Shown here piece after piece: positions 11,311 through 49,436 of a stretch of DNA of 64,000 nt. This stretch comes from Nitrosopumilus sp. (GTDB lineage: Archaea; Thermoproteota; Nitrososphaeria; Nitrososphaerales; Nitrosopumilaceae), in the NCBI GenBank assembly GCA_965219345.1, contig OZ244732.1, forward strand, positions 1,472,001 through 1,536,000, read 5' to 3'. The translations under genes and the position numbers were made by a program. The notes under the pieces were generated by a model, which saw nothing but the letters and a program-made list of their open reading frames with translations, did no database searches and had not been told where the DNA came from. The first letter of the stretch is position 1; every line of letters starts with the position of its first letter.

Positions 11311-11603
11311 GGTTCCGGCAAATTCTGGTGATTTACACCATAAATCATCAGACATGGTTCTTCTCCGAAGTTTACTGCAACCGCATCATACCAACGTTCA
11401 GAAAATAAATCATCAGACATGGTTCTTCCCCGAACCGCTCTTTGAAATCCTGGGATAACCAGTACCTGTAACTTTCTCGAAATATCCATCACAACCCTGC
11501 TGTGATAACTCCCTTTGAGCCATCACATAAACTTGGCACAAAACTGCAAAGTGCAATTCAGAGAAGATCCATATTTCACTCATCACCAGAATTTGCCAGA
11601 TCC
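11311..11603. mobile_element. IS6-like terminal repeat / MITE-like element
   Basis: Starts GGTTCCGGCAAATTCTGGTGAT and ends ATCACCAGAATTTGCCAGATCC (inverted, 2 mismatches); 11311-11503 is also an inverted homologue of ~30189-30321. Confidence 0.7.
11340..11434. repeat. Repeat-spacer-repeat unit 1: 30 bp duplication flanking a 35 bp insert
   Basis: ATAAATCATCAGACATGGTTCTTC(T/C)CCGAA at 11340-11369 and 11405-11434; insert 11370-11404 is absent from the paralogous copy at ~30260-30293. Confidence 0.8.
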
Positions 11604-21800: not shown

Positions 21801-24800
21801 GTCACAGGTGATGCTAGCGATAGCGTACACGAGTACACACTATCCCGCCCCTTTGACACACTCACTGCCGACTTTGACAGCTCCTTCTCCGTGTTCTCAC
21901 AGGATACATCCCCGACAGGCCTGGCCTTCTCCAATGACGGAATAAGGATGTTTGTCGTGGGTGATTTCGGCAATGACATAAACGAGTACATACTGCCAAA
22001 GCCATTTGCGCTATTCCCACAGCCAAACTCCCTTGCCAGCTTTGCGGCAACCTTGGTCACAAACAACGTTGCACCGACACCGCCACCCGATGACATTGAT
22101 CCCTCGATAGATACCACCCTGCCAACAATCACCGCAGCTGCCGTGACCTCCCTTACCGAGATACTCCTGACGTACAGCGAGGACATAGACGTCACAACCA
22201 CGGACGGCGAAGGATTCGCCCTTTCCACCGGAACGGTGCATGCAAACACCGATCCCGCCGGTACGGCAGACACCATAACACTTACCGTCTCCGGCATTAC
22301 CGCATCCGATGCTCCAGACGTGATTTACACCGAGTCTGATGGCAACGTGGAAGATACCGCGTCAAACGAGGCAGCGAGCCAGACCTTTACCGGCACCACC
22401 CAGCTGCCGGACACTATTCCACCAACAATCACCGCAGCTTCCGTGACCTCGGCTACCAGCATAACCCTGACGTACAGCGAGAACATAGACGTCACAACCA
22501 CAAACGGCGCGGGATTCTCCCTTTCCACCGGGCAAGTGTCGGCAAACACCGATCCCGCCGGTTCGGACGACACCATAACCCTTACCGTCTCTGGCATCAC
22601 AACATCCGATGCTCCAGCTATAACTTACATCGCTCCACCTGGCACCGTGGTTGACGCGGAATCAAACCCGGCAGCAGACCAGACCTTTACCGGCACAACC
22701 GATGACGCGCCTCCAACCGTGTCCTCCATTGCAACTGCCAGCACATCAACAATTAACATCGTGCTGTCCGAAAACGTCACAATAAACGGTGCGGCACCGG
22801 AAGACTTTGTGCTGTCCAGCACCATATCCACAGACCCGGCCGTGACCGGAATCACCGCTGTTACAAACAACACGGTAGCCCTTGCCCTTGACGATACGCT
22901 TGACAGCAATGATGCCATCCTCCTGGCATACACCAAGACCACGGGCAGCATAGATGACATCCCTCTTCCGCCCCTTCTCAGCTCCTTCCCAGTAGGTATA
23001 CAAGGCTCGGGATCAAACGGCATGGCCTTCTCTAATGACGGAACAAGGATGTTTGTAGTGAGTAGTGGTAGTGGTAGCGATAACGATGCCGTACACCAGT
23101 ACACACTAACCGCCCCCTTTGACGTATCCACTGCCACCTTTGTCGACTCTTTCTCAGTGGCATCACAAGACACAGTACCGCAAGGCCTGGCCTTCTCTGG
23201 TGACGGAACAAAGATGTTTGTTGTGGGTGGTTTCGACAATAACATAAACGAGTACACACTATCCGCCGCCTTTGACGTGTCCACTGCCACCTCTGCCAAC
23301 TCCTTCTCAGTGGCATCACAAGACACAGCCCCGCTAGACATGGCCTTCTCTGCTGACGGAACAAAGATGTTTGTCTTGGGCGGTGCTGGCGATGCCGTAT
23401 ACGAGTACACGCTAACCGCCCCCTTTGACGTATCGAATGTCGCCGGCACATCAGATGTCACCTTTGTCGACTCTTTCCCAGTGGCATCAGAAGACACAGC
23501 CCCGACAGGCCTGGCCTTCTCTGGTAACGGAACTAGGATGTTCGTTGTAGGTAATTTTAACGATGCCGTATACGAGTACGCACTAACCGCCCCCTTTGAC
23601 GTGTCCACTGCCACCTCTGCCAACTCCTTCTCAGTATCCTCACAGGACCAATCCCCGACAGGCCTGGCCCTCTCTGCTGACGGAACGAGGATATTTGTCT
23701 TGGGTGATAACAGCGAGAACGTACACCAGTACGCGCTATCTGAACCATTTACGTTATTCCTACAGCCAAACTCCCTTGCCAGCTTTGCGGCAATGTCAGT
23801 CACAAACAACATTGCATCACCACCCGCTGAAATTGATCCCTCGATAGATACCACCCCACCAACAATCATCGCAGCTGCCGTGACCTCCCTTACCGAGATA
23901 CTCCTGACGTACAGCGAGGACATAGACGTCACAACCACGGACGGCACGGGATTCGCCCTCTCCGTCGGAACGGTGCATGCAAACACCGATCCCGCCGGTT
24001 CGAACGACACCATAACCCTTACCGTCTCCGGCATCGCCGCATCCTATACTCCAGCTATAAGTTATACCACATCTGATGGCACCGTGACAGATACCGCGTC
24101 AAACCAGGCAGCAAACCAGGTCTTTGCCGGCACCACCCCGCTACCCGATACCACCCCACCAACAATCACCGCAGCTGCCGTGACCTCGGCTACCAGCATA
24201 GTCCTGACGTACAGCGAGAACATAGACGTCACAACTACAGACGGCGAAGGATTCGCCCTCTCTGATGGAGGAACGGTGTCGGCAAACTCTGATCCCGCCA
24301 GTACGGACGACACCATAACCCTTACCGTCTCTGGCATCACAGCATCCGATGCTCCAAACGTGATTTACACCGAGTCTGATGGCTCCGTGACAGACAGCGC
24401 ATCAAACCCGGCAGCGAACCAGACCTTTACCGGCACCACCCCGCTGCCGGACACCGTTCCACCGGAAATCACCGCAGCTGCCGTGACCTCGGCTATCAGC
24501 ATAGTCCTGACGTACAGCGAGAACATAGACGTCAGCACCACAAACGGCCAAGGATTCTCCCTCTCCGTCGGACAGGTGACGACAAACACCGATCCCGCCG
24601 GTTCGGCAGACACCATAACCCTTACGGTCTCCGGCATCCCCTCTACCTCTCATAGACCGGATGTGACTTACGCCGCATCTGATGGCACCGTGACAGACAG
24701 CGCGTCAAACCCGGCAGCAAGCCAGACCTTTACCGGCACAACCGATGACGCGCCGCCAACGGTATCTTCCATCGAAACTTCCAGCACATCAACAAATGCA

Positions 24801-27800
24801 ATTGACGTCGTGCTGTCCGAAAACGTTACAATAAACGGTGCGACACCGGAAGACTTTGCGCTGTCCGGCACCCTATCCACATACCAGCGCGTGACCGGAA
24901 TCACGGCCCTTGCCGACACGGTAACCCTTACCCTCAATGATACGCTTGACAGTGATGATGTCATCAGCCTGGCATACACCAAAGGCACTGGCAGCATAGA
25001 TGACATTTCTCTCACGTCCTTTGTTGATTCTTTCTCAACAGTTTTCCAAGATATATCCCCACAGGGTTTGGCATTCTCTGGTGACGGAACAAAGATGTTT
25101 GTCGCAGGTGGTGATACCGATACCGTATACGAGTACGCACTAGCTGTCCCCTTTGACGTGTCCACTGTCCGCTACAATGGCAACTCCTTCTCAGTGGCTT
25201 CACAGGACACATCCCCACAGGGTTTGGCCTTCTCTAATGACGGTACCAGGATGTTTGTCGCAGGTAATTTCGGCAATGACGTAAACGAGTACACGCTAAC
25301 CGCCCCCTTTGACGTGTCCACTGTCACCTTTGTCGACTCTTTCTCAGTGGCTTCACAAGACGAATCCCCACAGGGTTTGGCCTTCTCCAATGACGGTACT
25401 AGGATGTTTGTCGCAGGTCGCGTTAGCAATGCCGTATACGAGTACGCGCTGACCGCCCCCTTTGACGTGTCCACTGCCAGCTATGGCAGCTCCTTCCCAG
25501 TAGGTTCACAGGACACATCCCCACAGGGCCTGGCCTTCTCCAACGACGGAACAAGGATGTTTGTCGCAGGTGATATTGGCAATGACGTAAACGAGTACAC
25601 ACTAACCTCCCCCTTTGACGTATCCACTGCCACCTTTGTCGACTTTTTCTCACTGGCGACATCAAGCGCATCATCCCCGCAGGGTTTGGCCTTCTCCAAT
25701 GACGGTACCAGGATGTTTGTTGCGGATTTTGATACCTTTGGCGTACACGAGTACGCGCTGTCAAAGCCATTTGCGCTATTCCCACAGCCAAACTCGCTTG
25801 CCAGCTTTGCGGCAACCTTGGTCACAAACAACATTGCATCACCACCCGCTGAAATTGATCCCTCGATAGATACCACCCCACCAACAATCACCGCAGCTGC
25901 CGTGACCTCCCTTACCGAGATACTCCTGACATACAGCGAGAACATAGACGTCACAACCACGGACGGCACGGGATTCGCCCTTTCCACCGGAACGGTGCAT
26001 GCAAACACCGATCCCGCCAGTACGGCAGACACCATAACCCTTACCGTCTCCGGCATCGCCGCATCCGATACTCCAGCTATAAGTTATACCACATCTGATG
26101 GCACCGTGACAGATACCGCGTCAAACCAGGCAGCAAACCAGGTCTTTGCCGGCACCACGGCGCTGCCGGACACCATTCCGCCAACAATCACCGCAGCTGC
26201 CGTGACCTCCCTTACCGAGATACTCCTGACGTACAGCGAGAACATAGACGTCACAACCACGGACGGCGCAGGATTCACCCTCTCTGACGGAGGAACGGTG
26301 TCGGCAAACTCTGATCCCGCCAGTACGGACGACACCATAACCCTTACCGTCTCTGGTATCACCACAGCATCCGATGCTCCAAACGTGATTTACACCGAGT
26401 CTGATGGCTCCGTGACAGATACCGCGTCAAACCCGGCAGCAAACCAGACCTTTACCGGCACCACCCCGCTGCCGGACACTGTTCCACCGGAGATCACCGC
26501 AGCTGCCGTGACCTCGGCTACCAGCATAGTCCTGACGTACAGCGAGAACATAGACGTCACAACCACAGACGGCGCAGGATTCACCCTCTCTGACGGACAA
26601 GTGACGGCAAACACCGATCCCGCCGGTTCGGACGACACCATAACGCTTGCCGTCTCCGGCATCACAGCATTCGATGCTCCAAACGTGATTTACACCGAGT
26701 CTGATGGCTCCGTGACAGATACCGCGTCAAACCAGGCCGAAGACCAGACCTTTGCCGGCACCACGGCGCCGCCGGACACTATTCCACCAACAATCACCGC
26801 AGCTGCCGTGACCTCCCTTACCGAGATACTCCTGACATACAGCGAGAACATTGACGTCAGCACCACGAACGGCGCAGGATTCGCCCTCTCTGACGGAGGA
26901 ACAGTGTCGGCAAACACCGATCCCGACAATTCGGGCAACACCATAATCCTTACCGTCTCTGGCATCACCACAGCTGATACTCCAGCCATAACCTACACCG
27001 CTCCACCTGGCACCGTGGTTGACAACGCGTCAAACCCGGCAGCAGACCAGACCTTTGCCGGCACCACCCCGCTACCCGATACTATTCCACCAAGAATCAC
27101 CGCAGCTGCCGTGACCTCCCTTACCGAGATACTCCTGACGTACAGCGAGAACATTGACGTCACAGCCACGAACGGCGCAGGATTCGCCCTCTCTGACGGA
27201 GGAACAGTGTCGGCAAACACCGATCCCGACAATTCGGGCAACACCATAATCCTTACCGTCTCTGGCATCACCACAGCTGATACTCCAGCCATAACCTACA
27301 CCGCTCCACCTGGCACCGTGGTTGACAACGCGTCAAACCCGGCAGCAGACCAGACCTTTGCCGGCACCACCCCGCTACCCGATACTATTCCACCAAGAAT
27401 CACCGCAGCTGCCGTGACCTCCCTTACCGAGATACTCCTGACATACAGCGAGAACATAGACGTCACAGCCACGAACGGCGAAGGATTCGCCCTCTCTGAC
27501 GGAGGAACAGTGTCGGCAAACACCGATCCCGCCGGTACGGGCAACACCATAATCCTTACCGTCTCTGGTATCACCACAGCATCCGATGCTCCAAACGTGA
27601 TTTACACCGAGTCTGACGGCACCGTGACAGATACCGCGTCAAACCCTGCAGCGAGCCAGACCTTTGCCGGCACCACCCCGCTACCCGATACTATTCCACC
27701 AACAATCACCGCAGCTGCCGTGACCTCCCTTACCGAGATAGTCCTGACGTACAGCGAGAACATAGACGTCACAGCCACAAACGGCCAAGGATTCGCCCTC

Positions 27801-30056
27801 TCTGACGAAGGAACGGTGTCGGCAAACACCGATCCCGACAATTCGGGCAACACCATAATCCTTACCGTCTCCGGCATTACCGACACATCCGATGCTCCAA
27901 ACGTGATTTACACCGAGTCTGACGGCACCGTGACAGATACCGCATCAAACCCTGCAGCGAGCCAGACCTTTACCGGCACCACCCCGCTGCCGGACACTAT
28001 TCCACCAACAATCACTGCGGCTTCTATGACCTCGGCTACCAACATGACCCTGACATACAGCGAGAACATAGACGTCACAACCACGAACGGCGCAGGATTC
28101 GCCCTCTCTGACGGAGGAACAGTGTCGGCAAACACCGATCCCGACAATTCGGGCAACACCATAATCCTTACCGTCTCCGGCATTACCGACACATCCGATA
28201 CTCCAGCCATCACCTATACCGCTCCACCTGGCACCGTGGTTGACAACGCGTCAAACCAGGCAGCAAACCAGACCTTTACCGGTACAACCGATAACGCGCC
28301 GCCAACCGTATCCTCCATTGCAACTGCCGGCACATCAACAATTGATATCGTGCTGTCCGAAGACGTCACAATAAACGGTGCGGCACCCGAAGACTTTGCG
28401 CTGTCCGGCACCATATCCACGGACCCAGTCGTAACCGGAATCACCGCCATTGCCGCCGCTGCTGCCAACACGGTCACCCTTGCCCTTGACGATACGCTTG
28501 ATCATGACGATGTCATCCTCCTGGCATACACCAAGACCACGGGCAGCATAGATGACATTCCTGCCGCTTCTGTCATCCTTGACACCTCCTTCTCCGTGTC
28601 CTCACAGAGCGACTTCCCGACAGGCCTAACCTTCTCTGCCAACGGAACAAAGATGTTTGTTCTAAGTGATGGTGACGATGCCGTATACGAGTACGCGCTA
28701 ACCGCCCCCTTCGACGTGTCTTCCGCCACCTTTACCAGATCTGACGTGTCTTCCGCCACCTTTACCAACTCTTCCTCAATGCCACAGGACACACTCCCGA
28801 CAGGCCTAACCTTCTCTGCCAACGGAACAAGGATGTTTGTCGTAGGTGATAGTCAAAACGTAATCGAGTACACGCTAACCGCCCCCTTTGACCTGTCTGC
28901 TGCTGTCACCTTTGCCAGCTTCTTCTCAGTGGCATCGCAAGTACAATCCCCGACAGGCCTAACCTTCTCTGCCAACGGAACAAAGATGTTTGTCGTGGAT
29001 GACAATGACGATGCCGTATACGAGTACACATTAACCGCCCCCTTTGACGTATCCACTGCCGTCCCTGCCGGCTCCTTCTCCATATCCTCACAGGACACAT
29101 TGCCATTTGGCATAACCTTCTCCGATGACGGTACCAGGATGTTTGTCGTAGGTAATTCTAACGGCAAGGTAAACGAGTACGCATTAACCACCGCCTTTGC
29201 CGTATCCACTGCCTCCTTTGCCGGCTCTTTTTCAACAGTTCCACAAGAGACGTTCCCATATGACCTGGCCTTCTCCGGTGACGGTACCACGATGTTCGTC
29301 GTAGGCATTAATAGCGATGCCGTATACCAGTACGCGCTGCCCGAACCGTTTACGCTATTCCCACAGCCAAACTCGCTTGCCAGCTTTGCGGCAGCCCCAG
29401 TCACAAACAACAACATTGCACCGCCCGTTGCGGATGATACGGAGGAACCAGAACCTGAACCGGAAAGAAAGCCCGAAAAGAGTGGTAGAGGCGGTGGTGG
29501 CGGCGGCCGTACCGGCGTCAGTCCAGCCGGAGGAGGAGAACCCCTGTCCAACATTGAGCTTTACGGCGTTTCATGGAACTGTGAGACGGGCCTAATCAGA
29601 ATAATAACCGGTGATGACTCGCCTACGCTGTCGGTATCCGTCAGAACCTCCATTGGCGGCCTGGCCGAGGCCAGCCTGTCCGATGAAAGAATACCCGGCA
29701 GCAAGGTATTCACATCCCATATGGGGCCTTCCGAGACATACCTTGGCATACTGCTGGTGGACATAGCGGGACGGGACAGCAACATTAGAAACGAAAGCAT
29801 CAGCATAAAACAGTGCGTTGGCGAGAAGACATATGATGGTGATGGTGATGGTGATGGTGATGGTGATGGTGACGCATCCGATACGCCAAAAAAGTCCCAG
29901 TCCAGTAGTAGCAGCAGCAGCGCATCCAAAGGCGACATGGAATGCAAGCCGGGCTTTACGCTGGTCAAGAACCTGAGAGATGATCTTGCCTGCCTCCTTG
30001 ACCGCTCGGTACAGCCGCTGATGGAGCGCGGCTGGGTAGAATCAATAGTCGGATAA
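15816..30056 (+). CDS. Giant (4,746 aa) secreted repetitive surface protein/adhesin: ~100 aa SwmB/Ig-like repeats and seven beta-propeller-like modules
   Basis: Signal peptide (ISFVILISTLMLASLSIVPAHA); PTITAAAVTS..I.LTYSENIDV repeats; P.GLAFS.DGTKMFV....VYEYTLTAPFDVST blades; C-terminal ECKPG...ACL...LMERGW motif; probable start ATG 15834. Confidence 0.9.
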   Translation: MCENKEMERISFVILISTLMLASLSIVPAHAAEHPTIIAASVTSATSIVLTYSENVDVNATDGAGFGLSDGGKVTANTDPAGSGNTITLTVSGITNTSDTPDVTYIESDGTVADGASNPAASQIFTGTVDDAPPTVSSIATSSASTIDIVLSENVTVNGAAPGDFVLSGTISTDPTVTGITAAADTVTLSLNDTLDGDDVIRLAYTRTMSSIDDISLTSFVDSFSVKAIEDEDPRSLAFSGDGYKIFILDGIADAVHEYTLTAPFDISNAAPVSSFSVASEDEDPRGLAFSGDGTKMFVVGTFDDGDVHEYALAVPFNISDATSANSFSTRSQDSYPRSLAFSGDGTKMFVVDSIGKDVNEYTLTAPFDISNATFVDSFSLVPSNVTFPQGLTFSNDGTRMFVVDSNSNDVHEYALTAPFDVSTATFVDSFSLVPSNIAFPQGLTFSNDGTRMFVTDFDTSDVYEYALSKPFTLFPQPNSLDSFVTTLVTNNIVPPTITAAAVTSLTEIVLTYSENVDVTTTNGEGFTLSVGTVTANTDPAGSDDTITLTVSGITTSDAPVITYIAPPGTVVDAESNPAADQTFTGTTDDAPPIVFSIATSNMSAIDIVLSEDVTVSSVAPEDFVLSSTISTDPTVTGITALNDTVTLSLNDTLAHNDVISLAYNKATGSIDDILAPPSFVGSFSVASQDNTPTGLAFSDDGTKMFVVGLTGTDINEYALTAPFDISNADFVDSFSVGSQEAFPADLAFSANGTKMFVIGLAGNDINKYTLTAPFDVSTASFVDSFQVSQTDISPRSLAFSNDGTKMFVLDIFGGDSYVNEYTLNGPFDVSTSSFVDSFSVASHAPSPQGLAFSDDGTKMFVSSSDNDAVIKYALTAPFDVSTASFVDSFSVSSQGFALTALAFSDDGTRMFVLENDSNAVYEYALSEPFTLFPQPNSLASFAAMSVTNNIVPLDTVPPTITAAAVTSLTEIVLTYSEDIDVTTTNGAGFTLSVGTVSATSDPAGSDDTITLTVSGITTSDTPNVTYTASDGSVADSALNQAASQTFTGTTDNAPPTVLSIVTNDTSTINIVLSENVTINGAAPEDFALSSTISTDPAVTGITAVTNNTVALALDDTLDSNDVILLAYTKTTGSIDDIPLPPLDGSFPVDMQDSESTGLAFSNDGTRMFVVSTGSDSDNDAVHQYTLTAAFDVSTATFVDSFSVGSQDTFPSGLAFSGDGTKMFVVGSFDNNINEYTLTTAFDVSTATSANSFSVSSQDILPLDMAFSADGTKMFVLGDAGDDINEYTLSAPFDVSNVAGTSDVTFVDSFPVASQDRSTQGLTFSADGTRMFVVGSINGAVYGYALTAAFDVSTATFVDSFSVTSQDRFPRGLAFSADGTRIFVLGSDSKNVHQYALSEPFTLFQQPNSLASFAAMSVTNNIPSDTTPPTITAAAVTSLTEITLTYSENIDVTTTNGEGFTLSVGQVTANTDPDNSDDTITLTISGITASDAPDVIYTESDGSVTDGASNPAASQTFTGTTPLPDTIPPTITAAAVTSLTEILLTYSENIDVTTTNGEGFILFVEGTVSANSDPDNSGNTITLTVSGITASDAPNVIYTESDGSVTDGASNPAASQTFTGTTPLPDTVPPTITAAAVTSATSITLTYSENIDVTTTNGQGFSLSVGQVTTNTDPAGSADTITLTVSGIPSTSHRPDVTYAASDGTVTDSASNPAASQTFTGTVDDAPPTVSSIETSSTSTNAIDVVLSEDVTVNSVESRDFVLSGTISTNPALTAVTVAADTLTLHLNAALAHDDVINLAYTKTTGSIDDIALPSFVDSFPVASRDTFPSGLAFSNDGTKMFVAGDSTDSVHQHVLSAPFDVSTSNFVRSFSINAQSTSPQGLAFSNDGTKMFVTDSFKSTVNEYTLSAPFNISNATFVQSTSLALNALQPHGLAFSTNGTLMFVASDFNDSVYNYLLSTPFDLSSYIPIDSFSVASQDVDPRHLAFSNDGTKMFVTGDASDSVHEYTLSRPFDTLTADFDSSFSVFSQDTSPTGLAFSNDGIRMFVVGDFGNDINEYILPKPFALFPQPNSLASFAATLVTNNVAPTPPPDDIDPSIDTTLPTITAAAVTSLTEILLTYSEDIDVTTTDGEGFALSTGTVHANTDPAGTADTITLTVSGITASDAPDVIYTESDGNVEDTASNEAASQTFTGTTQLPDTIPPTITAASVTSATSITLTYSENIDVTTTNGAGFSLSTGQVSANTDPAGSDDTITLTVSGITTSDAPAITYIAPPGTVVDAESNPAADQTFTGTTDDAPPTVSSIATASTSTINIVLSENVTINGAAPEDFVLSSTISTDPAVTGITAVTNNTVALALDDTLDSNDAILLAYTKTTGSIDDIPLPPLLSSFPVGIQGSGSNGMAFSNDGTRMFVVSSGSGSDNDAVHQYTLTAPFDVSTATFVDSFSVASQDTVPQGLAFSGDGTKMFVVGGFDNNINEYTLSAAFDVSTATSANSFSVASQDTAPLDMAFSADGTKMFVLGGAGDAVYEYTLTAPFDVSNVAGTSDVTFVDSFPVASEDTAPTGLAFSGNGTRMFVVGNFNDAVYEYALTAPFDVSTATSANSFSVSSQDQSPTGLALSADGTRIFVLGDNSENVHQYALSEPFTLFLQPNSLASFAAMSVTNNIASPPAEIDPSIDTTPPTIIAAAVTSLTEILLTYSEDIDVTTTDGTGFALSVGTVHANTDPAGSNDTITLTVSGIAASYTPAISYTTSDGTVTDTASNQAANQVFAGTTPLPDTTPPTITAAAVTSATSIVLTYSENIDVTTTDGEGFALSDGGTVSANSDPASTDDTITLTVSGITASDAPNVIYTESDGSVTDSASNPAANQTFTGTTPLPDTVPPEITAAAVTSAISIVLTYSENIDVSTTNGQGFSLSVGQVTTNTDPAGSADTITLTVSGIPSTSHRPDVTYAASDGTVTDSASNPAASQTFTGTTDDAPPTVSSIETSSTSTNAIDVVLSENVTINGATPEDFALSGTLSTYQRVTGITALADTVTLTLNDTLDSDDVISLAYTKGTGSIDDISLTSFVDSFSTVFQDISPQGLAFSGDGTKMFVAGGDTDTVYEYALAVPFDVSTVRYNGNSFSVASQDTSPQGLAFSNDGTRMFVAGNFGNDVNEYTLTAPFDVSTVTFVDSFSVASQDESPQGLAFSNDGTRMFVAGRVSNAVYEYALTAPFDVSTASYGSSFPVGSQDTSPQGLAFSNDGTRMFVAGDIGNDVNEYTLTSPFDVSTATFVDFFSLATSSASSPQGLAFSNDGTRMFVADFDTFGVHEYALSKPFALFPQPNSLASFAATLVTNNIASPPAEIDPSIDTTPPTITAAAVTSLTEILLTYSENIDVTTTDGTGFALSTGTVHANTDPASTADTITLTVSGIAASDTPAISYTTSDGTVTDTASNQAANQVFAGTTALPDTIPPTITAAAVTSLTEILLTYSENIDVTTTDGAGFTLSDGGTVSANSDPASTDDTITLTVSGITTASDAPNVIYTESDGSVTDTASNPAANQTFTGTTPLPDTVPPEITAAAVTSATSIVLTYSENIDVTTTDGAGFTLSDGQVTANTDPAGSDDTITLAVSGITAFDAPNVIYTESDGSVTDTASNQAEDQTFAGTTAPPDTIPPTITAAAVTSLTEILLTYSENIDVSTTNGAGFALSDGGTVSANTDPDNSGNTIILTVSGITTADTPAITYTAPPGTVVDNASNPAADQTFAGTTPLPDTIPPRITAAAVTSLTEILLTYSENIDVTATNGAGFALSDGGTVSANTDPDNSGNTIILTVSGITTADTPAITYTAPPGTVVDNASNPAADQTFAGTTPLPDTIPPRITAAAVTSLTEILLTYSENIDVTATNGEGFALSDGGTVSANTDPAGTGNTIILTVSGITTASDAPNVIYTESDGTVTDTASNPAASQTFAGTTPLPDTIPPTITAAAVTSLTEIVLTYSENIDVTATNGQGFALSDEGTVSANTDPDNSGNTIILTVSGITDTSDAPNVIYTESDGTVTDTASNPAASQTFTGTTPLPDTIPPTITAASMTSATNMTLTYSENIDVTTTNGAGFALSDGGTVSANTDPDNSGNTIILTVSGITDTSDTPAITYTAPPGTVVDNASNQAANQTFTGTTDNAPPTVSSIATAGTSTIDIVLSEDVTINGAAPEDFALSGTISTDPVVTGITAIAAAAANTVTLALDDTLDHDDVILLAYTKTTGSIDDIPAASVILDTSFSVSSQSDFPTGLTFSANGTKMFVLSDGDDAVYEYALTAPFDVSSATFTRSDVSSATFTNSSSMPQDTLPTGLTFSANGTRMFVVGDSQNVIEYTLTAPFDLSAAVTFASFFSVASQVQSPTGLTFSANGTKMFVVDDNDDAVYEYTLTAPFDVSTAVPAGSFSISSQDTLPFGITFSDDGTRMFVVGNSNGKVNEYALTTAFAVSTASFAGSFSTVPQETFPYDLAFSGDGTTMFVVGINSDAVYQYALPEPFTLFPQPNSLASFAAAPVTNNNIAPPVADDTEEPEPEPERKPEKSGRGGGGGGRTGVSPAGGGEPLSNIELYGVSWNCETGLIRIITGDDSPTLSVSVRTSIGGLAEASLSDERIPGSKVFTSHMGPSETYLGILLVDIAGRDSNIRNESISIKQCVGEKTYDGDGDGDGDGDGDASDTPKKSQSSSSSSSASKGDMECKPGFTLVKNLRDDLACLLDRSVQPLMERGWVESIVG
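29835..29870 (+). repeat. (GATGGT)6 in-frame microsatellite encoding (DG)6
   Basis: Read directly from the sequence. Confidence 0.9.
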
Positions 30057-30149
30057 CACGTGTGTACGGTAGTGAGGCAAAGCCGCAATCGCGCTTGCCT
30101 GTATGGTTACGTCACGCATGACCCTGTCTTTGGTCTAGTAGTCTCATCG

Positions 30150-30321
30150 GGTTCTGGTAAAAAACGGTGATCAAGATCACCAAAAATTAACAGCAGGGTT
30201 ATGACAGATAATTTCAAGAAAATTACCATGTACTAATTATCCTAGGATTTCAAAGAGCGATTCGGAGAGAGGATCCATATCTGATGATTTATGGTGCAGA
30301 TCACCAGAATTTACTAGAATC
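30150..30321. mobile_element. IS6-like terminal repeat / MITE-like element
   Basis: Starts GGTTCTGGTAAAAAACGGTGATC, ends GATCACCAGAATTTACTAGAATC; contains GATCACCAAAAATTAACAGCAGGGT, nearly identical to the TIR sequence at 38443. Confidence 0.7.
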
Positions 30322-30535
30322 GGTGTTGCCGTTGTTGCAGAAATTATTCTTGTATCTGACATTTTTGTCCTGATTGAGAAGATGGTTTTTTCTTAAAAAG
30401 TCAAAATAATTGAGAATTAGTGTTATGTTGCGTTAGTGGAGCTTGACTCATAATTTTTACACTAGAAAGTTGGCGTGAGTTTTCGACAAATCAAAATAGA
30501 TGTAAAGATAGGGTGGTAGATAAAAAGTTAGGTGA

Positions 30536-31509
30536 TTATCGATCATTCACCACCAGTACATAATCAGGCAATAATGAGAAAGTATCTTCATCTCTATTGT
30601 TGTATCTCCATGCCATCTCCTTGATGTACAACAGAAACTTTTCAGAACTGACACCGTGATGCTTTGCCATTCTCTCTTTTGCAAAACTCCAAAAATCCTC
30701 AGTTCCGTTGATGCAGACATCGCCTTTTCCAAACATCCTACCGTGATCAGCTGACAAATGACGATAACCATGGAACATCAACGAATCATGATCTTTCCAC
30801 CTGTCTGTATACGCAATGCCTCCTTTCCTTACTTTCTTGACGGTTCCGGCAAGAAGTGTACTGACTTTCACATCTGTGACAATCTCAACGTGAACCTTTC
30901 CCTTTCTCTCCAAAATTCCAAATACAATTGTCCTGTTTTTGGCACCGCGTCCGCGATTTCCCTTTCCTTTGCCTCCAAAATACGCCTCATCAGCCTCAAT
31001 TTTGCCCTTTGGTTTCCTGTCTGACCTTGCAAGATGGCATGATATGGAGTGGTGCATACAGTCAAATGCATTTAGTGCGGTAGGATGACTGACATCTGCT
31101 TCCCTTGCTGCACGCAGGATGAAAACCAGGTAACGAAATCTGTCCTCTTCGTAGGATGACTGACATCTGCTTCCCTTGCTGCACGTCTTGCACTAATCCT
31201 AGGATCAAAGAGTTTGGTTAGAATCAACCATTTTGTAAAACCAATATTGATTGTATCCAACCATGTTCCGCCAAACGGCCTGTAATCTATTTTACAATCT
31301 TTGCACCTTAACTTTCCTCTTAATATGATGTAATACTTTTTGGAACCGCATGAGGTACGATGAACTGTATTTTTCTTTTGGAATTCCTTACAGGGAAATT
31401 CCAATGCGGCTGATTTGTTGTAAGTTATTTTGGATAGTTCAATCAGGTTGATTGTTTTTCCTAATAATTGTGTGAAATCAGTTGGCGGTAACAGGTTTAC
31501 AATCACCAA
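30536..31509 (-). pseudogene. IS1595-family (ISXO2-like) transposase split by a 71 bp repeat-spacer insertion
   Basis: Zn finger (RCKDC), EADEAYFGGK.KG.RGRGA, VFGILER, YTD, NG.E.FWS.AK, WRYN; 5' boundary uncertain. Confidence 0.88.
31080..31185. repeat. Repeat-spacer-repeat unit 2: 35 bp duplication flanking a 36 bp insert
   Basis: GTAGGATGACTGACATCTGCTTCCCTTGCTGCACG at 31080-31114 and 31151-31185. Confidence 0.95.
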
Positions 31510-31521
31510 AAAGAAAAAAAA

Positions 31522-32055
31522 TTAATTGAATGACCGGAGCTCGGATTTGAGCGAGTCTACGTCATAGGATGATTTCACATAGCTGTTTGCTGCAATCCCA
31601 TCCTTGATTTTGTAGACACCAGACTCAATTCCAGTGAGGTAGTAATTGTCCTTGTAGATACTATCAGTATCCTTTGACAAAAAGACAATGACCTCGTCTC
31701 TTTTATTCAATTCTGTGTCGTGCATCGACTCTTGGCTGATGTTGTTGTAGGTTCCACCATCTACAACAAACTCCATGGTTTTAGAGTATTGGCCTTTGAG
31801 TGATTCACTTTGGTGTAGTTCCCATACAGTATACACTGAGGGAAACGCCACGTTTCCACTAACCTCCCATTCAACATATGACCTGCTGTCTCCGAGGGTT
31901 CCATGTGCTACCAATATGCTTCGATCTACCAGATCTTCGTTACCGTAAACGGGGGAGTATGCTTCGGTAACTATGCTCATGGGTATGATTCCTCCAAAAT
32001 ACGCTCCTGGAATAACTAGAATGGTAGCCAGCGGTATCAATATCTTTTTGTTCAT
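31522..32055 (-). CDS. Secreted or membrane-anchored hypothetical protein
   Basis: N-terminal hydrophobic segment (KKILIPLATILVIPG), then a soluble beta-rich domain. Confidence 0.7.
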   Translation of the reverse strand: MNKKILIPLATILVIPGAYFGGIIPMSIVTEAYSPVYGNEDLVDRSILVAHGTLGDSRSYVEWEVSGNVAFPSVYTVWELHQSESLKGQYSKTMEFVVDGGTYNNISQESMHDTELNKRDEVIVFLSKDTDSIYKDNYYLTGIESGVYKIKDGIAANSYVKSSYDVDSLKSELRSFN

Positions 32056-32175
32056 ATCAATACTTGTTTGCCAGGCTCCATTGCTTGTTGAATTAAAAAT
32101 CCACTAATATTTTTTTCATTTTCTGGAACCCGGCAGATTTTGACAGTACGGGTCAGGCAGGCTCGTAAATTCTCT

Positions 32176-33407
32176 TCAGTCGGGAGGGCATCTCGCAATA
32201 ATGCCACTTATATCAATGCCACACTTGGCCGCCACGTTTTCCAAATGCACCCTGTCGTAGGGCGTCCAATGGCACAGCGTTCCGTCGTGACTGCCGCACC
32301 AATCAATGAAATCGAGCATCATTTTGCGTTACCCGTCTCGACTTTTGGCCAGAAACGGTACATATTTTCCGTCTTGCATAGTTCCTATGAGGAAATCGCC
32401 ATCGGGATCTCCCGCGATGCCTTCAAGATCTATAAACGTGGGATTCTCCGGCAACGGGATATCGCACAGTTTGACTTCTTTGCCGCTTGACAACGCTGCC
32501 GCACACGACACATGACGTGCCGTTATGCCATTTGGCAGTGTTTCCAATCTGGTCAAGTCGTCTATGGTCTGCACCCCGATGTCTGCCAACATCTGACGCT
32601 TTACTGGACCTATCCCGTTAACCAGTGATATGTCGCCTGACTTGATCGCCATCTGGTCGACATATTGACTCCATGGACGCGGTGTGTGTCCGTAAATAGG
32701 TTCAGGCATAACGGCACCGTTCGCTAAATCATGGACTTTATTGATGAATTCCTGCATCTGATCCGCATATTGATCGTAAGGACACTCTCTTTCGTCTCCA
32801 TTGCCATTCACGATGACAAAATCGGGGGCATAGCCTTGTATGATTCCCAGCATGTGAGTACGCCGCCCCCTGCCAGACGTGCTGCGGTTTGATGATGTTG
32901 CTGCTATTATACGGCCTCCGTTACGGGTATAAGGTTGTCATCCTGCCAGACGTGCTGCGGTTTGATGATGTTGCTGCTCTTCATTTCATATGGAACGTAC
33001 GAATGCTTCCAGAACAGCGACTGTTTCTCGACGCGCACGAGCAAGTCGGGGATGCCACACACGCTGCCTCCGAAGAGGCACACACCACGCAGTTGTTTCA
33101 CCCCCTTCTGCATGTCTTCAAGTCCAGCTAGGAATGATTCAGTACGCGTTTTGACAGTCTTGGTTTCCATGACCAGCCCTTCAGACATTTCCATAGTGAC
33201 AGTCTCTTCATGTTCGAGGCCGCGTATCACAAGAGTCTGGTCTTCGTCTTGGTGCACTGGATCTACATGATGGTTACACCATACGGCAAACGGAGAAACC
33301 CTACACAGTCCTATTTCAGACGCTATGGCACGCACGCCGTCTGCCATACATCGTTCGAATATCTGTTCGGCATTTTCAGTTTTTCGTCTTCGCTTCCAAA
33401 ATGGCAT
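32176..33407 (-). pseudogene. TM0106-like RecB/Cas4-type nuclease with HhH and RNase H-like domains, disrupted
   Basis: SPFAVWC, GIPDLL...YEMKSS (PD-(D/E)xK), VNGIGPVKRQML (HhH), FIDLEG, and HWTPYD after an in-frame stop at 32329; 73 bp insertion plus a second frameshift. Confidence 0.8.
32869..32978. repeat. Repeat-spacer-repeat unit 3: 37 bp duplication flanking a 36 bp insert
   Basis: CCTGCCAGACGTGCTGCGGTTTGATGATGTTGCTGCT at 32869-32905 and 32942-32978. Confidence 0.95.
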
Positions 33408-33789
33408 ATACTGACAGACTGAATGCGTTTAAAAAGTCATGATGGCGTGCAGATCTGATAAATTGTCGGGCATGGTTGTGTTAATGAGGATGGTATTCTT
33501 GGCACTGTTCAAAATTGTAGATCACAGTGGAATCCCAGGCTCTGGTAAATCTAGGTGATCTACAGTTCTTGTTGGTCAAAAGTGAGCTTTTTAGATCTTC
33601 TCCCGATTCAGACTCGCACAGTCCAGGCCAATGCAGTCTGGCTGTTCAAAAGTGATCCACCCTTTGACCTGCTGTTCAAAAGTGATCCGCATACCCTGCT
33701 GTTAAATTTTTGTGATCACTTTTATCTTTCATAACATTAGGATCTTGCCATTTAACACGAAATCCAATAGAATTGCCAATGGCAACTAG

Positions 33790-34212
33790 CTAGTTTATTC
33801 CAGAATGCATGTCTTCCGGTTTCACCATCTTCGATAGTGTAAGTGCGATCCCTAAGGTGTCTCGTGGAAACCAAATACCTGTATGAGACGGATAATCTTC
33901 CTCCTGTAAGTCTTCAATCCGAAGTTCATTGTCATGTTCAGAATTTATGGTTTTTTTAGCATCCCCCACATTAAGAACTGCAAACCGTCCGTTTGTTGTT
34001 GTACTGTGATGTCTGCCAAACTCTTCTCTTACTTTCTTCATACCTCTTTCCAAATCTGGCATACCAAAATATTCAATCCAGTTAGATGATAAAAAATTTT
34101 CATCATCACGAAACTCAAAGGCAGCTGGCATTGGAAGATTATTTCCATTAAGTCTAGTGGCTGAACAATATCTTGCCACATGGCTGTCACTACAAAGGGG
34201 CTTGGTCATCAC
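33790..34212 (-). CDS. Hypothetical protein, candidate ART/RES-like toxin
   Basis: VARY...PAAF...LSSNW...SHTGI pattern; overlaps the upstream gene by ATGA; function is inference. Confidence 0.6.
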   Translation of the reverse strand: MMTKPLCSDSHVARYCSATRLNGNNLPMPAAFEFRDDENFLSSNWIEYFGMPDLERGMKKVREEFGRHHSTTTNGRFAVLNVGDAKKTINSEHDNELRIEDLQEEDYPSHTGIWFPRDTLGIALTLSKMVKPEDMHSGIN

Positions 34213-34937
34213 ATAATCAATTTATCTACAAATTCTTTGATATGATACATTATTTTATGTGAAGGTAATACTCCGCTGATTTTTCGCTGTGGTGATGTTG
34301 GATCCTGTTGACTAAACACAACTGCAAACATGATGTCACCAGATGTTAGAAAATTCATTGCCAAGGTACCATAGTCTGGTATCTCCCAAACTGCCTGCAA
34401 GAGTCCATTTGGGTTTATTCCAATATCTGGATTCGGAAGTTGGGATTCAGATATTATGAACCGGGCAAAATTTTGTAGCGAGCTAGATACAATCGATTTT
34501 TCTTCTTGTTCTTTCTCAATTATTTCGTGCAAAAATGTCAATCGCCTTGCAATGGCATTAGATCTGAATATTTTAATTTCACTAATGACATCTTTTACTT
34601 TTGTTGTATGCTCAATCGGTACATACAGTAAGGAAGGCTTTCCTGCATGTGCTTCATAACTAGATAATATACCTTCATCATGTTGGAATGAAATGAATGT
34701 GTTCAATCTTTCCTCCATGTTTGCAGTAATCGCCATCAACAGGTCATCTGTTTTTTTCATTTCTTTTATTTTATCATCATCGAGAATAACAAATCTGTCC
34801 GAGGTTGGTCCCCCAAATACCTTAGACCTTTCGTATTCTTGTTTTTGAGGTGTTACCAGATTGTATAGCTGTTCAAGCACTTTCAACCGTAGGATGTCTG
34901 ACCCAAAACCTGATGACTTGTAAATGATTGTAGACAT
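34209..34937 (-). CDS. Hypothetical protein (middle gene of the cargo operon)
   Basis: 242 aa ORF; C-terminal P.PDIGINPNGLLQAVW motif; tightly coupled to neighbours. Confidence 0.65.
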   Translation of the reverse strand: MSTIIYKSSGFGSDILRLKVLEQLYNLVTPQKQEYERSKVFGGPTSDRFVILDDDKIKEMKKTDDLLMAITANMEERLNTFISFQHDEGILSSYEAHAGKPSLLYVPIEHTTKVKDVISEIKIFRSNAIARRLTFLHEIIEKEQEEKSIVSSSLQNFARFIISESQLPNPDIGINPNGLLQAVWEIPDYGTLAMNFLTSGDIMFAVVFSQQDPTSPQRKISGVLPSHKIMYHIKEFVDKLIM

Positions 34938-34940
34938 GTA

Positions 34941-35588
34941 TTATGTACTCTCCAATATCTCATTCAACTTGGACTCAATAATATTTTTGGCACGACCCCA
35001 TCCAGTCAGCACGTGTTCCATACTCTCTACAGAGTCAAACGGACCATCATGATGAAGATTGCAATCTATGACCACCGATGGTGTTTTCTTATCACCACGA
35101 CGCATTGTTTTCCACCTAAAGTTGAGATTCAGTGTAGCTTTATCGGTTTTTATAATAAATCGAGGTATCATCTCAATATTGTTGTCTAGTTGTTCAGATT
35201 TTAGAAACTTTTGAGTCATCCATTGCAGCGGTTCGTTATTTTCAATTGACACAACACAATTGAGGCCTATGGCCTGATATGATACATGGGGAAGCTTTTT
35301 GATGTATGATGCAGCGAGACGGTGAATCTCGTCTTCGTGTTCATCCGTAAATGGCACATTGTAATTTTTACTAATATCAAGTATTTGTTGATCTACTAAC
35401 CACTTGATTCCATTGTCATATTGTATCATTGATACGGCCGGAGTACTAATTGTTTCAACTGTTTCCCATTTGCTATCTACTATGTTGTTGTTTGCCAGAA
35501 AGTCTCTGTTCAGTATGGAGGGGTTGTGAAATTTGGCGATAACGACAACGGTGACTGAGTGCAGCCAGAAAGATACTTCGCTAGACAT
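34941..35588 (-). CDS. Hypothetical protein resembling TIGR04255-like family
   Basis: SVTVVVIAKFHNPSIL..FL, LPHVSYQAIGLN, IDCNLHHD pattern; family call is tentative. Confidence 0.6.
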   Translation of the reverse strand: MSSEVSFWLHSVTVVVIAKFHNPSILNRDFLANNNIVDSKWETVETISTPAVSMIQYDNGIKWLVDQQILDISKNYNVPFTDEHEDEIHRLAASYIKKLPHVSYQAIGLNCVVSIENNEPLQWMTQKFLKSEQLDNNIEMIPRFIIKTDKATLNLNFRWKTMRRGDKKTPSVVIDCNLHHDGPFDSVESMEHVLTGWGRAKNIIESKLNEILEST

Positions 35589-35709
35589 GGGGTATCACAC
35601 GTTTTACAGTATAATTTTGTCTAGTGCAAAAAGAGTAGCATTGCCGAACCAACCTATTCACAACATTGACCGTAATTAATTAAAAGGTATCGGCATTATG
35701 CTCTAGTCC

Positions 35710-36777
35710 TCTATTGTACGGAAATTATGTCGCGCGCCAAGAGTCCGGCGTACTGCCCAAGAGTATTTTACACTACACAAGTCCAGGCATCCCATGCCAA
35801 TACGCCTGACCGACAAGGCCATCCGATACGCCGTCAGGCAGCTGGAGAAGGGCAAAGACACCAAGACGGTCGCAGAAGAGATCAACGTCACCCAGAGGCA
35901 TGTGCAGCGGCTGTGGGCCGAATTCAACAGGACCGGTTCGATCCACGTCCAGCAGCCTGCAGGACGGCCGGCAGATCTCCCACCGCCCGACGAGGAAACC
36001 AATATGGTATTAGACGTTCACGGACGCAAGCCGGAGGGTGTGCTACGGACAGCCAAGAGGCTTCGGAAGGAGGGACACGATATAAGCTACTCCCGCGTAT
36101 ACCAGATAATGAAGTCCAACGGCCTGGTCATCGACTCCCCGGCAAAGTCGAGGAAGCGCAAGTGGGTCAGGTACGAGCGCCTGTACTCGAATGCCATGTG
36201 GCATACTGACTGGCATGTGATGAAGGATCCGCGCATGAAGGATCTGAACCTGATCACGTATCTTGATGATGCCTCCAGGTGCGTTACGGGCGCGGCATTG
36301 TTCAAGGAGGCCACCTCAGAGAACGCGGTGGCGGTGCTCCGGCAGGCAGTCGGCAGGTTCGACGTGCCGGCGACCATCCTGTCCGACAACGGCTCGTGCT
36401 TCGTCGGCAGGGGCGGCCGCAAGAGGCAGACAGGCACCTGGACTCCGACCCTCTTTGAGAACGAGCTGCTGGACCACAACATAGGGCTGATCAATTCAAG
36501 ACCGTATCACCCGCAGACCAACGGAAAACTGGAGAGGTTCCACAGGAGCATCGAGGAGGAAATATGGCACTATGACGGGCTGGACGACTATGTCGAGTAC
36601 TACAACACGGACAGGCTGCACTTTTCACTGGACATCGACAACTACGAGACGCCGCTGATGGCGTTCCGCAACAAGAGGGCTACCGACGAGATAAGACAGC
36701 AGAATTCCAGATGGATGGAGGCAGATATCAATGACTGACGACCCAGACAGGGGGCGACATGATTTTCATATATTACA
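35710..36777 (+). mobile_element. IS481-family element nested in the cargo transposon
   Basis: Imperfect 24 bp inverted ends TCTATTGTACGGAAATTATGTCGC / GCGACATGATTTTCATATATTACA; visibly higher GC; no clear TSD. Confidence 0.75.
35794..36738 (+). CDS. IS481-family DDE integrase-type transposase
   Basis: N-terminal HTH, WHTDWH, YLDDASR, LSDNGSCF, YHPQTNGKLERFHRS, YNTDRLH. Confidence 0.92.
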   Translation: MPIRLTDKAIRYAVRQLEKGKDTKTVAEEINVTQRHVQRLWAEFNRTGSIHVQQPAGRPADLPPPDEETNMVLDVHGRKPEGVLRTAKRLRKEGHDISYSRVYQIMKSNGLVIDSPAKSRKRKWVRYERLYSNAMWHTDWHVMKDPRMKDLNLITYLDDASRCVTGAALFKEATSENAVAVLRQAVGRFDVPATILSDNGSCFVGRGGRKRQTGTWTPTLFENELLDHNIGLINSRPYHPQTNGKLERFHRSIEEEIWHYDGLDDYVEYYNTDRLHFSLDIDNYETPLMAFRNKRATDEIRQQNSRWMEADIND

Positions 36778-36830
36778 CTCTGCCCTCGGCGGCAAAAAGG
36801 TCTTAAACTTCCCATAGCCTGATCCAGTAA

Positions 36831-38444
36831 TTGGGCAAGACCATGACAAGGTACTATCCACAGAGTACCGGCATAGAATCCTCAAAGCCAAAGTCGTGCT
36901 ACTGCGGGCACGGCGACGACTTTAGGACGATATCCAGGGCAGACAAGAACGACACGCGCTACATGTGCAACAAGTGCAAGAAGAGTTACATTGTCAGGAA
37001 TCCAGAAACGGACAGACAGCAGATCAAAAAGATGGGCAGCATCTTGGACAACATCATACTCGGGATGAGTTCAAGGCAGACGTGCCTCAAGATGTTTATA
37101 GACTGGGGCCACGTCATAAAGCACCCCACCATACTCAGTTGGTCAAAGAACCACGTCCAGTACGCAAAGATGTTCACAGACGACATACTCTGCTGCCTAG
37201 AGTATGGGAGCGTGTGGGGGATAGACGAGACGGCAATGGACATACGCGGGTGGTGGCATGAGGCAGACCCCGAGATCCTCTCCCAGATGAGGACAATCGA
37301 GGAGAAGGCAAGGGAGTACGGGCTTCTAAAGGATCCCGAATTCAAGAAGGAATGGGAGAGGCTGCGCGCAAGGTCAGAAAGGTCAAAGAGGAGTGCAAAA
37401 AAGAAATGGCTTACGGCAGTCGTCGACCTGAAGACGAGACTGGTCATACACTACATCATCACCGACAAGCGTCCAGACAACAAGGACATCTACCGCCTCG
37501 TCAAGATGGCCACCGTCGTGGCAGGCATGCCCACAAACATCATAACTGACTGCTACTTGGCATACAAGCCCGCAATCCGAAGGCTTACCGGGGACATTGA
37601 AAAGCAGGGCGGGAAGCTGAACCACATACTGGTGCGCGCAAAAAACCAGAGCGAACTCCACTTTAAGCCGAAAAAACCCACAAACGGCGTTCCCAACCAC
37701 AACAACAGAATCGAGAGCGCATGGTCGACCATAAAGAGGAATATGGACATAATGTCCGGGTACGGGGAGTACCATTCTGACCACGTTATCAGCTACAACA
37801 TCATAAACCACAACTTCATCAAGCCGCATTCCTCCCTGAGAAAGTTCAGGACAGTCAGGCAGGGGCAGGCAAACATGGTAAACATGACTCCGGCCATGGA
37901 GGGGGGATACCCAAAGTGGTTTGCCAACTTTAACGAGTTGCTCACAGAATCGTGGGGGTATGACAAGTCGTTTATCTTCAAGCTCGGTCCGAGGATGCTG
38001 GACAGGCTCCGCGTCGGCATACGGGGTAGGAAGACGGTGGCCATAGCCGTCAAGAAGCGGACTGCAAAAAGCATGGTTGCAAAGATAGACAGGAAGCTTC
38101 AGACAGAGTGTGGGTTTGAATACGTACCGGAGAGAAAGGAGTGGAGGCGCGAGATACCGTCTATTATGAACATGAACAGGAGGCGCGAGGACAATATGGG
38201 TGCGGTAATGCCGATGCAGACATTTGAGGTGTGCAACAGGTGCGGACTGGCAGCACTTACCACGCAGACCGTGGTTGAACTCATCGGATACAGAAAATCC
38301 AATGGCAGGATAATCACGCAGCCAAACTGCCATAGGTGCAGAAACAAACTCTCAAGGAACCCCAAGCGCCGCACTGGGCAGAACCGCAAAAAAATGACTG
38401 AAAAGTCAGTCCTTTTGGGCATTCAGAAGAGGCTTGACTGTTGA
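36831..38444 (+). CDS. IS6/IS240-like DDE transposase, unusually long (537 aa)
   Basis: N-terminal Zn finger, WGIDET, WLTAVVD.KTR, IITDCYLAY, NNRIESAWSTIK, HNFIKPHSSL, C-terminal CNRC..CHRC; stop codon falls in the right TIR. Confidence 0.85.
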   Translation: MGKTMTRYYPQSTGIESSKPKSCYCGHGDDFRTISRADKNDTRYMCNKCKKSYIVRNPETDRQQIKKMGSILDNIILGMSSRQTCLKMFIDWGHVIKHPTILSWSKNHVQYAKMFTDDILCCLEYGSVWGIDETAMDIRGWWHEADPEILSQMRTIEEKAREYGLLKDPEFKKEWERLRARSERSKRSAKKKWLTAVVDLKTRLVIHYIITDKRPDNKDIYRLVKMATVVAGMPTNIITDCYLAYKPAIRRLTGDIEKQGGKLNHILVRAKNQSELHFKPKKPTNGVPNHNNRIESAWSTIKRNMDIMSGYGEYHSDHVISYNIINHNFIKPHSSLRKFRTVRQGQANMVNMTPAMEGGYPKWFANFNELLTESWGYDKSFIFKLGPRMLDRLRVGIRGRKTVAIAVKKRTAKSMVAKIDRKLQTECGFEYVPERKEWRREIPSIMNMNRRREDNMGAVMPMQTFEVCNRCGLAALTTQTVVELIGYRKSNGRIITQPNCHRCRNKLSRNPKRRTGQNRKKMTEKSVLLGIQKRLDC

Positions 38445-38755
38445 TCACAAAAATTTAACAGCAGGGTCTGCGGATCACTTTTGAACGGCAAGTCAGAAGG
38501 CAGATCACTTTTGAACAGCCAGACTGCATTGGCCTGGGCTGTGCGAGTCTGAATCGGGAGAAGATCTAAAAAGCTCACTTTTGACCAACAAGAACTGTAG
38601 ATCACCTAGATTTACCAGAGCCGAATCCCATAATCAATACGAGTCAGATCACCAAAAATGGACAGTGCCGGGTTGAATTAGATCTGATCCACAATTTTGA
38701 GCAGAGCCGACAGCAAGTATTCCTCCAAGTGCCACGTATCATCGTCCAAGTTTTC

Positions 38756-38865
38756 CTGGATCTACGCGTCCAACTGCATCGCTTGTTCTAGTTCCTATAC
38801 TGGGCCCAAGCCTTGGATATGGAAACCAGCTGGATCTACGCGTCCAACTGCATCGCTTGTTCTAG
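38756..38865. repeat. Repeat-spacer-repeat unit 4: 36 bp duplication flanking a 38 bp insert
   Basis: CTGGATCTACGCGTCCAACTGCATCGCTTGTTCTAG at 38756-38791 and 38830-38865. Confidence 0.95.
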
Positions 38866-38964
38866 CCCTTTAAAAACAACGGCCTGCAATGTAAAACGTG
38901 GTTACTTTAAACGACGATACCGTGGCATATTACGTTATATAACCTAATCATTTTAAAGTACAGA

Positions 38965-39644: not shown

Positions 39645-39756
39645 AATTTGAGAAAAAAATATTCCTCTTATAAACGATGAATAGTATCCTTTTGAACCGT
39701 TATTTATCAGAAATTCAAAAAATTCAAGTTATTTTCAAATATAAATAACATCTTGC

Positions 39757-41072: not shown

Positions 41073-41192
41073 TTTTACAAATTAATTTTTTGCTGTAAAT
41101 AATACTTACTAAAGGATTCTTTGTGTGGAATGTATAATTGTGAATTTTTAAGCAAATATGACTTAATTAGGAATAATCTGAAATAATATCAA

Positions 41193-41528: not shown

Positions 41529-41592
41529 AAAAAATTCAATATTTTACATTTTTAGTAAACATTTAATTCAATTGTGTCTTCTGTTTGAAATT

Positions 41593-43452: not shown

Positions 43453-43455
43453 AAA

Positions 43456-47409: not shown

Positions 47410-47518
47410 GTTGCAGCCCCTGCACCAAAGGTTCCAGGTGCACATTCGGCTCTAGATTTATGACAGATATGGGAGGTCTAAGGTTGCAGCCCCTGCACCA
47501 AAGGTTCCAGGTGCACAT
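47410..47518. repeat. Repeat-spacer-repeat unit 5: 36 bp duplication flanking a 37 bp insert
   Basis: GTTGCAGCCCCTGCACCAAAGGTTCCAGGTGCACAT at 47410-47445 and 47483-47518. Confidence 0.95.
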
Positions 47519-49401: not shown

Positions 49402-49436
49402 GATTATATTGTAGATAAAATGACAAAGAATCACTA

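Follow-up and report, generated by a model that had tools for sequence, protein, structure and literature searches.

In the DNA analysed here, a stretch of 64,000 nucleotides from Nitrosopumilus sp. that we refer to as the window, an IS1595-like insertion sequence (IS) carries a transposase gene that is broken into two pieces. The break coincides with a compact structure, called unit 2 below, in which two copies of a direct repeat enclose a short insert. The genome consists of a 1.87-Mb chromosome (C1) and a 41.6-kb contig, with a GC content of 36%; positions prefixed C1 refer to the chromosome and those given as a plain range refer to the window. The element and its parts are the following:

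30518..31509, minus strand: IS1595-like element, given as the region common to the paralogous copies (BLAST), so that its ends are approximate
30536..31057, minus strand: C-terminal transposase fragment of 173 aa, beginning at an internal ATG, with the DDE catalytic domain
31072..31509, minus strand: N-terminal fragment of the transposase, 145 aa, with an out-of-frame tail from the insert and the first repeat copy
31080..31114, no strand: first copy of the direct repeat of unit 2, 35 nt, the duplicated IS target, present once in each paralogous IS copy
31115..31150, no strand: insert of unit 2, 36 nt, the length of a spacer
31151..31185, no strand: second copy of the direct repeat of unit 2, 35 nt

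The C-terminal fragment matches the Pfam family DDE_Tnp_IS1595 (PF12762, E 3.9e-29, residues 17-153), which bears out the initial annotation in its reading of the interrupted gene as an IS1595-type transposase. The match of the N-terminal fragment to Zn_ribbon_IS1595 (PF12760) is sub-threshold (E 0.018, 15.5 bits, cut-off 25.4). As had been noted earlier, the two repeat copies are identical (35 of 35 positions), and the identity stops at both ends of the 35-mer; the repeat structure of unit 2 is far beyond chance. When 71 bp were taken out in a script, a single stop-free frame of 304 codons ran through the junction quoted in the initial annotation, in agreement with its claim that excision restores the frame. 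The same annotation had described the transposase as decayed in other respects as well. This stands for one residue, since an Arg replaces the first Cys of a CxxC motif when compared with paralog 789k, but not for the frame, in which there is no further stop or frameshift. At the termini of the IS, a short motif common to both ends, GGTGATT, was read by eye, and inverted repeats of 14 nt or longer were not reported.

Unit 2 is found in sequence data of more than one origin. Contigs from runs X1 and X4 span it, and a 151-nt contig from run X6, which belongs to a different study, corresponds to 31131-31281 with zero differences. The presence of the unit in contigs of runs from two studies makes an assembly artefact unlikely. 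Moreover, the genome holds about 36 such units, and similar ones occur in independently assembled relatives (see later in the text); an artefact of assembly or sequencing is thus hardly conceivable as the origin of the structure. A precise deletion of the added DNA would be possible through recombination between the 35-nt copies, and we saw no sign that it has occurred: no joint skipping the 71 nt is reported in the contigs of the public runs, in which rare variants are dropped, and the two joints that are listed bear letters of a paralogous IS copy.

The surroundings of the IS have several features of their own. Window positions 30000-49900 form an island with little synteny to relatives, except for 38932-44327. 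An open reading frame of 4,746 codons (15816-30056), with repeat modules of 153 and 300 nt, ends about 460 bp from the IS and probably encodes a giant surface protein. Two more transposase genes, at 36831-38444 and 44909-46228, are DDE_Tnp_IS240-like and DDE_Tnp_1, respectively. At 49488-49805, a 15-nt motif that is also present at C1:404930 is repeated perfectly 21 times in tandem, and at 10749-10857 a 24-nt motif is repeated 4.5 times in tandem.

Three further copies of the IS are present in the genome (C1:788685-789590, C1:1592745-1593504 and C1:1661988-1662898; 82-94% identity by BLAST), all of them frameshifted or truncated themselves. The initial annotation had anticipated that other copies would lack the insert, and in alignment all three indeed contain the 35-mer once and no insert. 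The same was found in relatives, where all five IS copies aligned on both sides (four in genome G009 and one in G015) have a single 35-mer without insert. In these cases, the two BLAST pieces of each copy have 35-37 nt of subject sequence in common, which indicates that the IS of the relatives carries the target once. A programmed-frameshift structure shared by all copies, the opposite outcome that had been considered, is absent from the eight comparable copies, so such a structure common to the family is excluded.

We scanned the chromosome for direct repeats that are isolated and exact, measure 24 nt or more and have a spacing of 30-400. The scan returned 56 isolated repeats, 31 of which have a spacing of 64-76; most of the remainder stem from repeat proteins, with periods of 150 or 300 nt. 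Curation led to 38 units, or 36 independent ones on the chromosome, because two of them each occur twice, in copies of a repeated element. Among these 36, 28 have the dimensions of a type I-G CRISPR system and 8 those of a system with a 30-nt repeat. In 20 units spaced by 70-76, the exact core reaches 33 nt or more, and in 9 of these it measures exactly 36 nt. Besides unit 2, the window contains four units, for which no strand applies:

11340..11434: 30 + 35 + 30 nt, with one mismatch; dimensions of a 30-nt-repeat CRISPR system
32869..32981: 37 + 36 + 37 nt
38756..38865: 36 + 38 + 36 nt
47410..47518: 36 + 37 + 36 nt; the insert is an exact copy of C1:249804-249840

The repeats and inserts of the five window units are mutually unrelated. 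The unit at 47410..47518 disrupts the 666-codon frame of a protein with fibronectin-III domains. For the unit at 32869 an empty site exists in relative G018, again as two BLAST pieces, here overlapping by 35 nt. The unit at 11340 recurs in reverse orientation at C1:1826938, in the second copy of a repeated element, and another unit is duplicated with the same insert in two copies of a repeated element (C1:37490 and C1:243305). The occurrence of the same unit and insert in two copies of an element indicates that the integration predates the last duplication or transposition of its host. A full-length serpin gene (11612-12997; PF00079, E 1e-117) adjoins the unit at 11340..11434.

The dimensions of the larger class of units correspond to those of a CRISPR array of the same genome. 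This array lies at C1:1641728-1653821 and comprises 164 copies of a 36-nt repeat, 163 of them identical, together with 163 spacers; 150 of the spacers are 35-40 nt long and the others reach up to 53 nt. It is flanked on one side by a cas4g/cas1g fusion gene (561 aa, 754 bits) and cas2 (95 aa, PF09827, E 4e-18), and on the other by csb2, cas7g/csb1, cas8g1/csx17 and cas3g. All type I-G gene matches exceed the curated cut-offs and, as judged from these genes, the genome encodes a complete type I-G CRISPR-Cas system with intact adaptation genes. Unit 2, with its 35-nt duplication and 36-nt insert, is close to the 36-nt repeat and 35-40-nt spacers of the array. Among the 28 units spaced by 70 or more, the spacing averages 72.96 (SD 1.43), against an array period of 73.98 (SD 2.42), or 73.44 (SD 1.37) without the long tail. 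The GC content is 0.43 for inserts, 0.42 for array spacers and 0.36 for the genome. In the seven units for which the source of the insert was resolved, the duplication measures 35-37 nt in six and 37-38 nt in one, while insert lengths vary between 32 and 39 nt. A constant duplication with a variable insert is the behaviour of a CRISPR array, and in six of the seven resolved units there is no compensation between the two lengths.

We therefore read unit 2 as the scar of an off-target (ectopic) spacer integration by Cas1-Cas2, a reading to which we give a probability of about 0.85. We infer the enzyme from what was observed directly: an insertion with a duplicated target and a broken frame, empty sites in other copies, matching dimensions, intact adaptation genes and a genome-wide family of similar units. 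In the course of events that we propose, the type I-G Cas4/Cas1 fusion together with Cas2, loaded with a 36-nt prespacer, would have hit the IS1595-like transposase gene instead of the leader-proximal repeat of the array. The two 3' ends of the spacer would have been joined one to each strand, at points separated by 35 bp, and repair of the gaps would then have copied the intervening 35 bp, giving the order repeat, insert, repeat. The 71 bp added in this way would have shifted the frame, severing a putative N-terminal DNA-binding part of the transposase from the DDE catalytic domain. Since unit 2 is flanked by IS sequence and not by CRISPR repeats, it is probably not processed into crRNA and would be a neutral scar.

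The position of unit 2 between the two halves of the transposase raises another reading, according to which it serves the IS itself, as a programmed frameshift or a regulatory structure, or acts as a functional mini-CRISPR array. None of our results speaks for this, and two speak against it. The unit is missing from all eight comparable IS copies, and a comparison of its flanks with the type I-G repeat gave no more than 11-14 identical positions out of 36 in each of the registers tried, which is the background level (mean 10.8). We thus regard a function of this kind as very improbable.

The inserts give an indication of where the captured DNA comes from. Among the 36 units, seven inserts match another chromosomal site from end to end (six of them exactly, the seventh with one mismatch), and an eighth has a partial match. 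None of the 163 array spacers fully matches the host chromosome; only two partial matches, of 18-19 nt, were found. Ectopic units thus tolerate self sources while the canonical array does not. This contrast would be expected if self-directed spacers were lethal when placed in the array, and if ectopic spacers gave rise to no crRNA and thereby evaded such selection. No consistent PAM-like motif was found on either side of the seven self sources. Between ectopic inserts and array spacers there were only chance-level matches of 9-14 nt. For the insert of unit 2, no other match was found in its own genome, in genome_contigs or in viral_contigs; a 28-nt core was absent from metagenome_contigs, and 150 further genomes of the genus gave no match with 3 or fewer mismatches. 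Three of the seven insert sources (C1:523291, C1:561914 and C1:575144) lie within 52 kb, a region that may be a capture hot spot. A fourth source, at C1:1636412, is situated 3 kb upstream of cas4/cas1.

The smaller class comprises eight units with a spacing of 64-68 and a duplication of 27-36 nt (30-32 nt in five of the eight). Relatives have arrays in which a 30-nt repeat recurs with a period of 64-71, and next to these arrays lie genes for a Cas1 of about 332-338 aa. No 30-nt-repeat array was found in the present genome. A 77-aa Cas1 fragment is nevertheless encoded at C1:1123019-1123234, with 55-58% identity to the Cas1 of the 30-nt system and 24-29% to type I-G Cas1, and directly adjoining it is an orphan 30-nt repeat with one mismatch (C1:1123248-1123277). 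The simplest reading is that a second adaptation module, now decayed, left the eight units as its scars.

The duplicated targets show a preference of their own. A G occupies the fourth base inside the ends of the duplications in 36 of 72 half-sites, against a background of 18% (p = 7e-10), and A is preferred at the sixth and seventh bases; unit 2 has the fourth-base G at both ends. The same preference at both ends of the duplication fits an enzyme with two-fold symmetry. Likeness of the duplicated targets to the true repeat is not above background: the best identity averages 12.8 of 36 positions, against 10.8 for random 36-mers, and the units had more tries. The hairpin potential of the targets is not significantly raised either (mean -3.9 versus -3.2 kcal/mol, p = 0.09). 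The units are clustered, with 9 gaps below 5 kb where 3.2 are expected (P = 0.003). They lie in multi-copy DNA more often than randomly chosen sites do (15 of 38 compared with 50 of 400; p = 8e-5), probably because selection eliminates integrations into essential genes. In each of two repeated elements, two independent integrations with different inserts took place at overlapping positions, offset by 1-7 nt, while the other copies of these elements are empty; both look like integration hot spots. The hits are at C1:404166 and C1:1448836 in the first element and, in the second, at C1:1824847 and at C1:1826938/window 11340. An empty copy of the second element adjoins the IS (30145-30321).

Small duplications with filler DNA are known to arise from break repair. 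A local accident of replication or repair, in which a tandem duplication formed and filler DNA was captured at the break, is one alternative origin. Such accidents, however, give no reason for duplications of 35-38 nt with fillers of 32-40 nt at 28 unrelated sites, and they leave unexplained both the peak of 31 of 56 repeats at a spacing of 64-76 and the symmetric preference at the duplication ends. We consider this origin distinctly improbable.

We also compared the presence of units with the CRISPR status of five related genomes, each scanned in part with the script used for the present genome:

G055: intact type I-G system with an identical 36-nt repeat in 131 copies; 800 of 2,388 kb scanned; 8 units at a spacing of 72-73, 7 of them independent
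G007: no Cas1 and neither repeat; 800 of 1,885 kb scanned; 1 unit, with a mismatch
G002: no Cas1, 36-nt repeat not found; 400 of 2,217 kb scanned; 1 unit, with a mismatch
G018: no Cas1 and neither repeat; 400 of 1,893 kb scanned; no unit at a spacing of 64-76 and 1 at 80, with a mismatch
G017: only the 30-nt system, with 58 repeats; 400 of 1,939 kb scanned; all 4 units found belong to the 36-nt class, with the 30-nt class unrepresented

In G007, three of the four raw candidates at a spacing of 72-75 were tandem coding repeats and were discarded. The present genome has 28 units in 1.87 Mb and G055 has 7 in 0.8 Mb, whereas the genomes lacking Cas genes together yielded 2-3 in 1.6 Mb. Moreover, the units of the Cas-less genomes all contain mismatches, whereas genomes with an intact type I-G system include perfect units. 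G017 ran against our prediction, since only units of the 30-nt class had been expected there; relics of type I-G, namely an orphan 36-nt repeat (C1:1535367-1535402 of that genome) and a Cas4 fragment (L184), were found afterwards. As the 400 kb scanned in G017 yielded no units of the 30-nt class, the proposed link between this class and the 30-nt system is drawn from the dimensions and from the relic in the present genome. Across the five related genomes, each part-scanned, the association of the units with type I-G holds.

These data bear on a further explanation, in which an undescribed process independent of CRISPR adds about 72 nt, as short DNA plus a target duplication, throughout the lineage, and the match to the array period is coincidental. 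The single units of G007 and G002, both without Cas genes, would agree with such a process, as would the absence of a PAM at the sources and of repeat likeness in the targets. It would have to account, however, for two size classes that each match one CRISPR type of the genus (36 + ~37 nt and 30 + ~35 nt), for resolved duplications that stay constant beside variable inserts, with no compensation in six of seven, and for units that are many times commoner, and in part perfect, where type I-G is intact. On this evidence we judge a CRISPR-independent process unlikely, and ectopic integration by Cas1-Cas2 remains the reading that we prefer.

Several known reactions resemble the one proposed here. 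As in transposon insertion, staggered strand joining followed by gap repair would duplicate the target. Target-site duplications of IS elements generally measure 2-14 bp; the duplications of 35-36 bp described here are much longer, and unlike transposons the inserts have no common sequence, ends or genes. With canonical type I-G acquisition in this genome, the units have in common a duplication of 36 nt, an insert of 35-40 nt and the same GC content, and the difference is that the target is not the leader-proximal repeat, so that the new 'repeat' consists of IS sequence.

Integration outside arrays has been described in two experimental settings. In Escherichia coli, over-expressed type I-E Cas1-Cas2 gave non-canonical integration and thereby 'neo-CRISPR' units (Nivala, Shipman and Church 2018, Nat Microbiol; according to 10.1101/148544, PMC7054753 and PMC11788318). 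The evidence for natural cases in that study is circumstantial and limited to two other species, according to 10.1101/148544. The units reported here are like those neo-CRISPR units, as these sources describe them, in having a spacer-length insert within a repeat-length duplication, outside arrays, in a genome with a matching integrase. They differ from that description in being natural and fixed in a wild archaeon, with neither over-expression nor supplied oligonucleotides, and in pointing to a type I-G Cas4/Cas1 fusion; they also amount to dozens of events per genome, with many inserts derived from the host chromosome. For Cas1-Cas2 of Pyrococcus furiosus, off-target integration was obtained in vitro, according to PMC6698737. 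As in the reaction described there, non-CRISPR DNA appears to have been used and the spacing between the two joints to have been set by the enzyme. The off-target sites of P. furiosus shared features of the repeat, as reported in PMC6698737, whereas the targets in the present genome are background-like and follow a symmetric preference of their own.

The natural frequency and cost of off-target integration are poorly documented, and the phenomenon is known from over-expression and from test-tube reactions; our literature search found no natural case of comparable scale. With about 36 mapped integration events, ascribed to two integrase types, the present genome offers an unusually rich record of misfiring. 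The events suggest that the duplication length set by the integrase, which serves as a ruler, holds on non-CRISPR DNA, and they expose a target preference that can be tested. They also give an idea of the cost, since the integrase would have inactivated genes, namely the transposase by unit 2 and a surface protein by another unit. With 7-8 of 36 inserts coming from the host chromosome, against 0 of 163 array spacers, the units provide an unselected view of spacer capture. They could aid in the design and judging of CRISPR-based DNA recorders and in the detection of CRISPR systems that a lineage has lost. On balance, and with less assurance than for unit 2 itself, we favour a broader interpretation for sponge-type Nitrosopumilus, in which the CRISPR integrase would act as a recurrent natural mutagen, leaving dozens of fixed misfires per genome that break genes and mobile elements. 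These scars would constitute an uncensored record of captures, including PAM-less pieces of the host, and they would outlast the CRISPR systems themselves, so that the length of the duplication may be read as a fossil of lost types.
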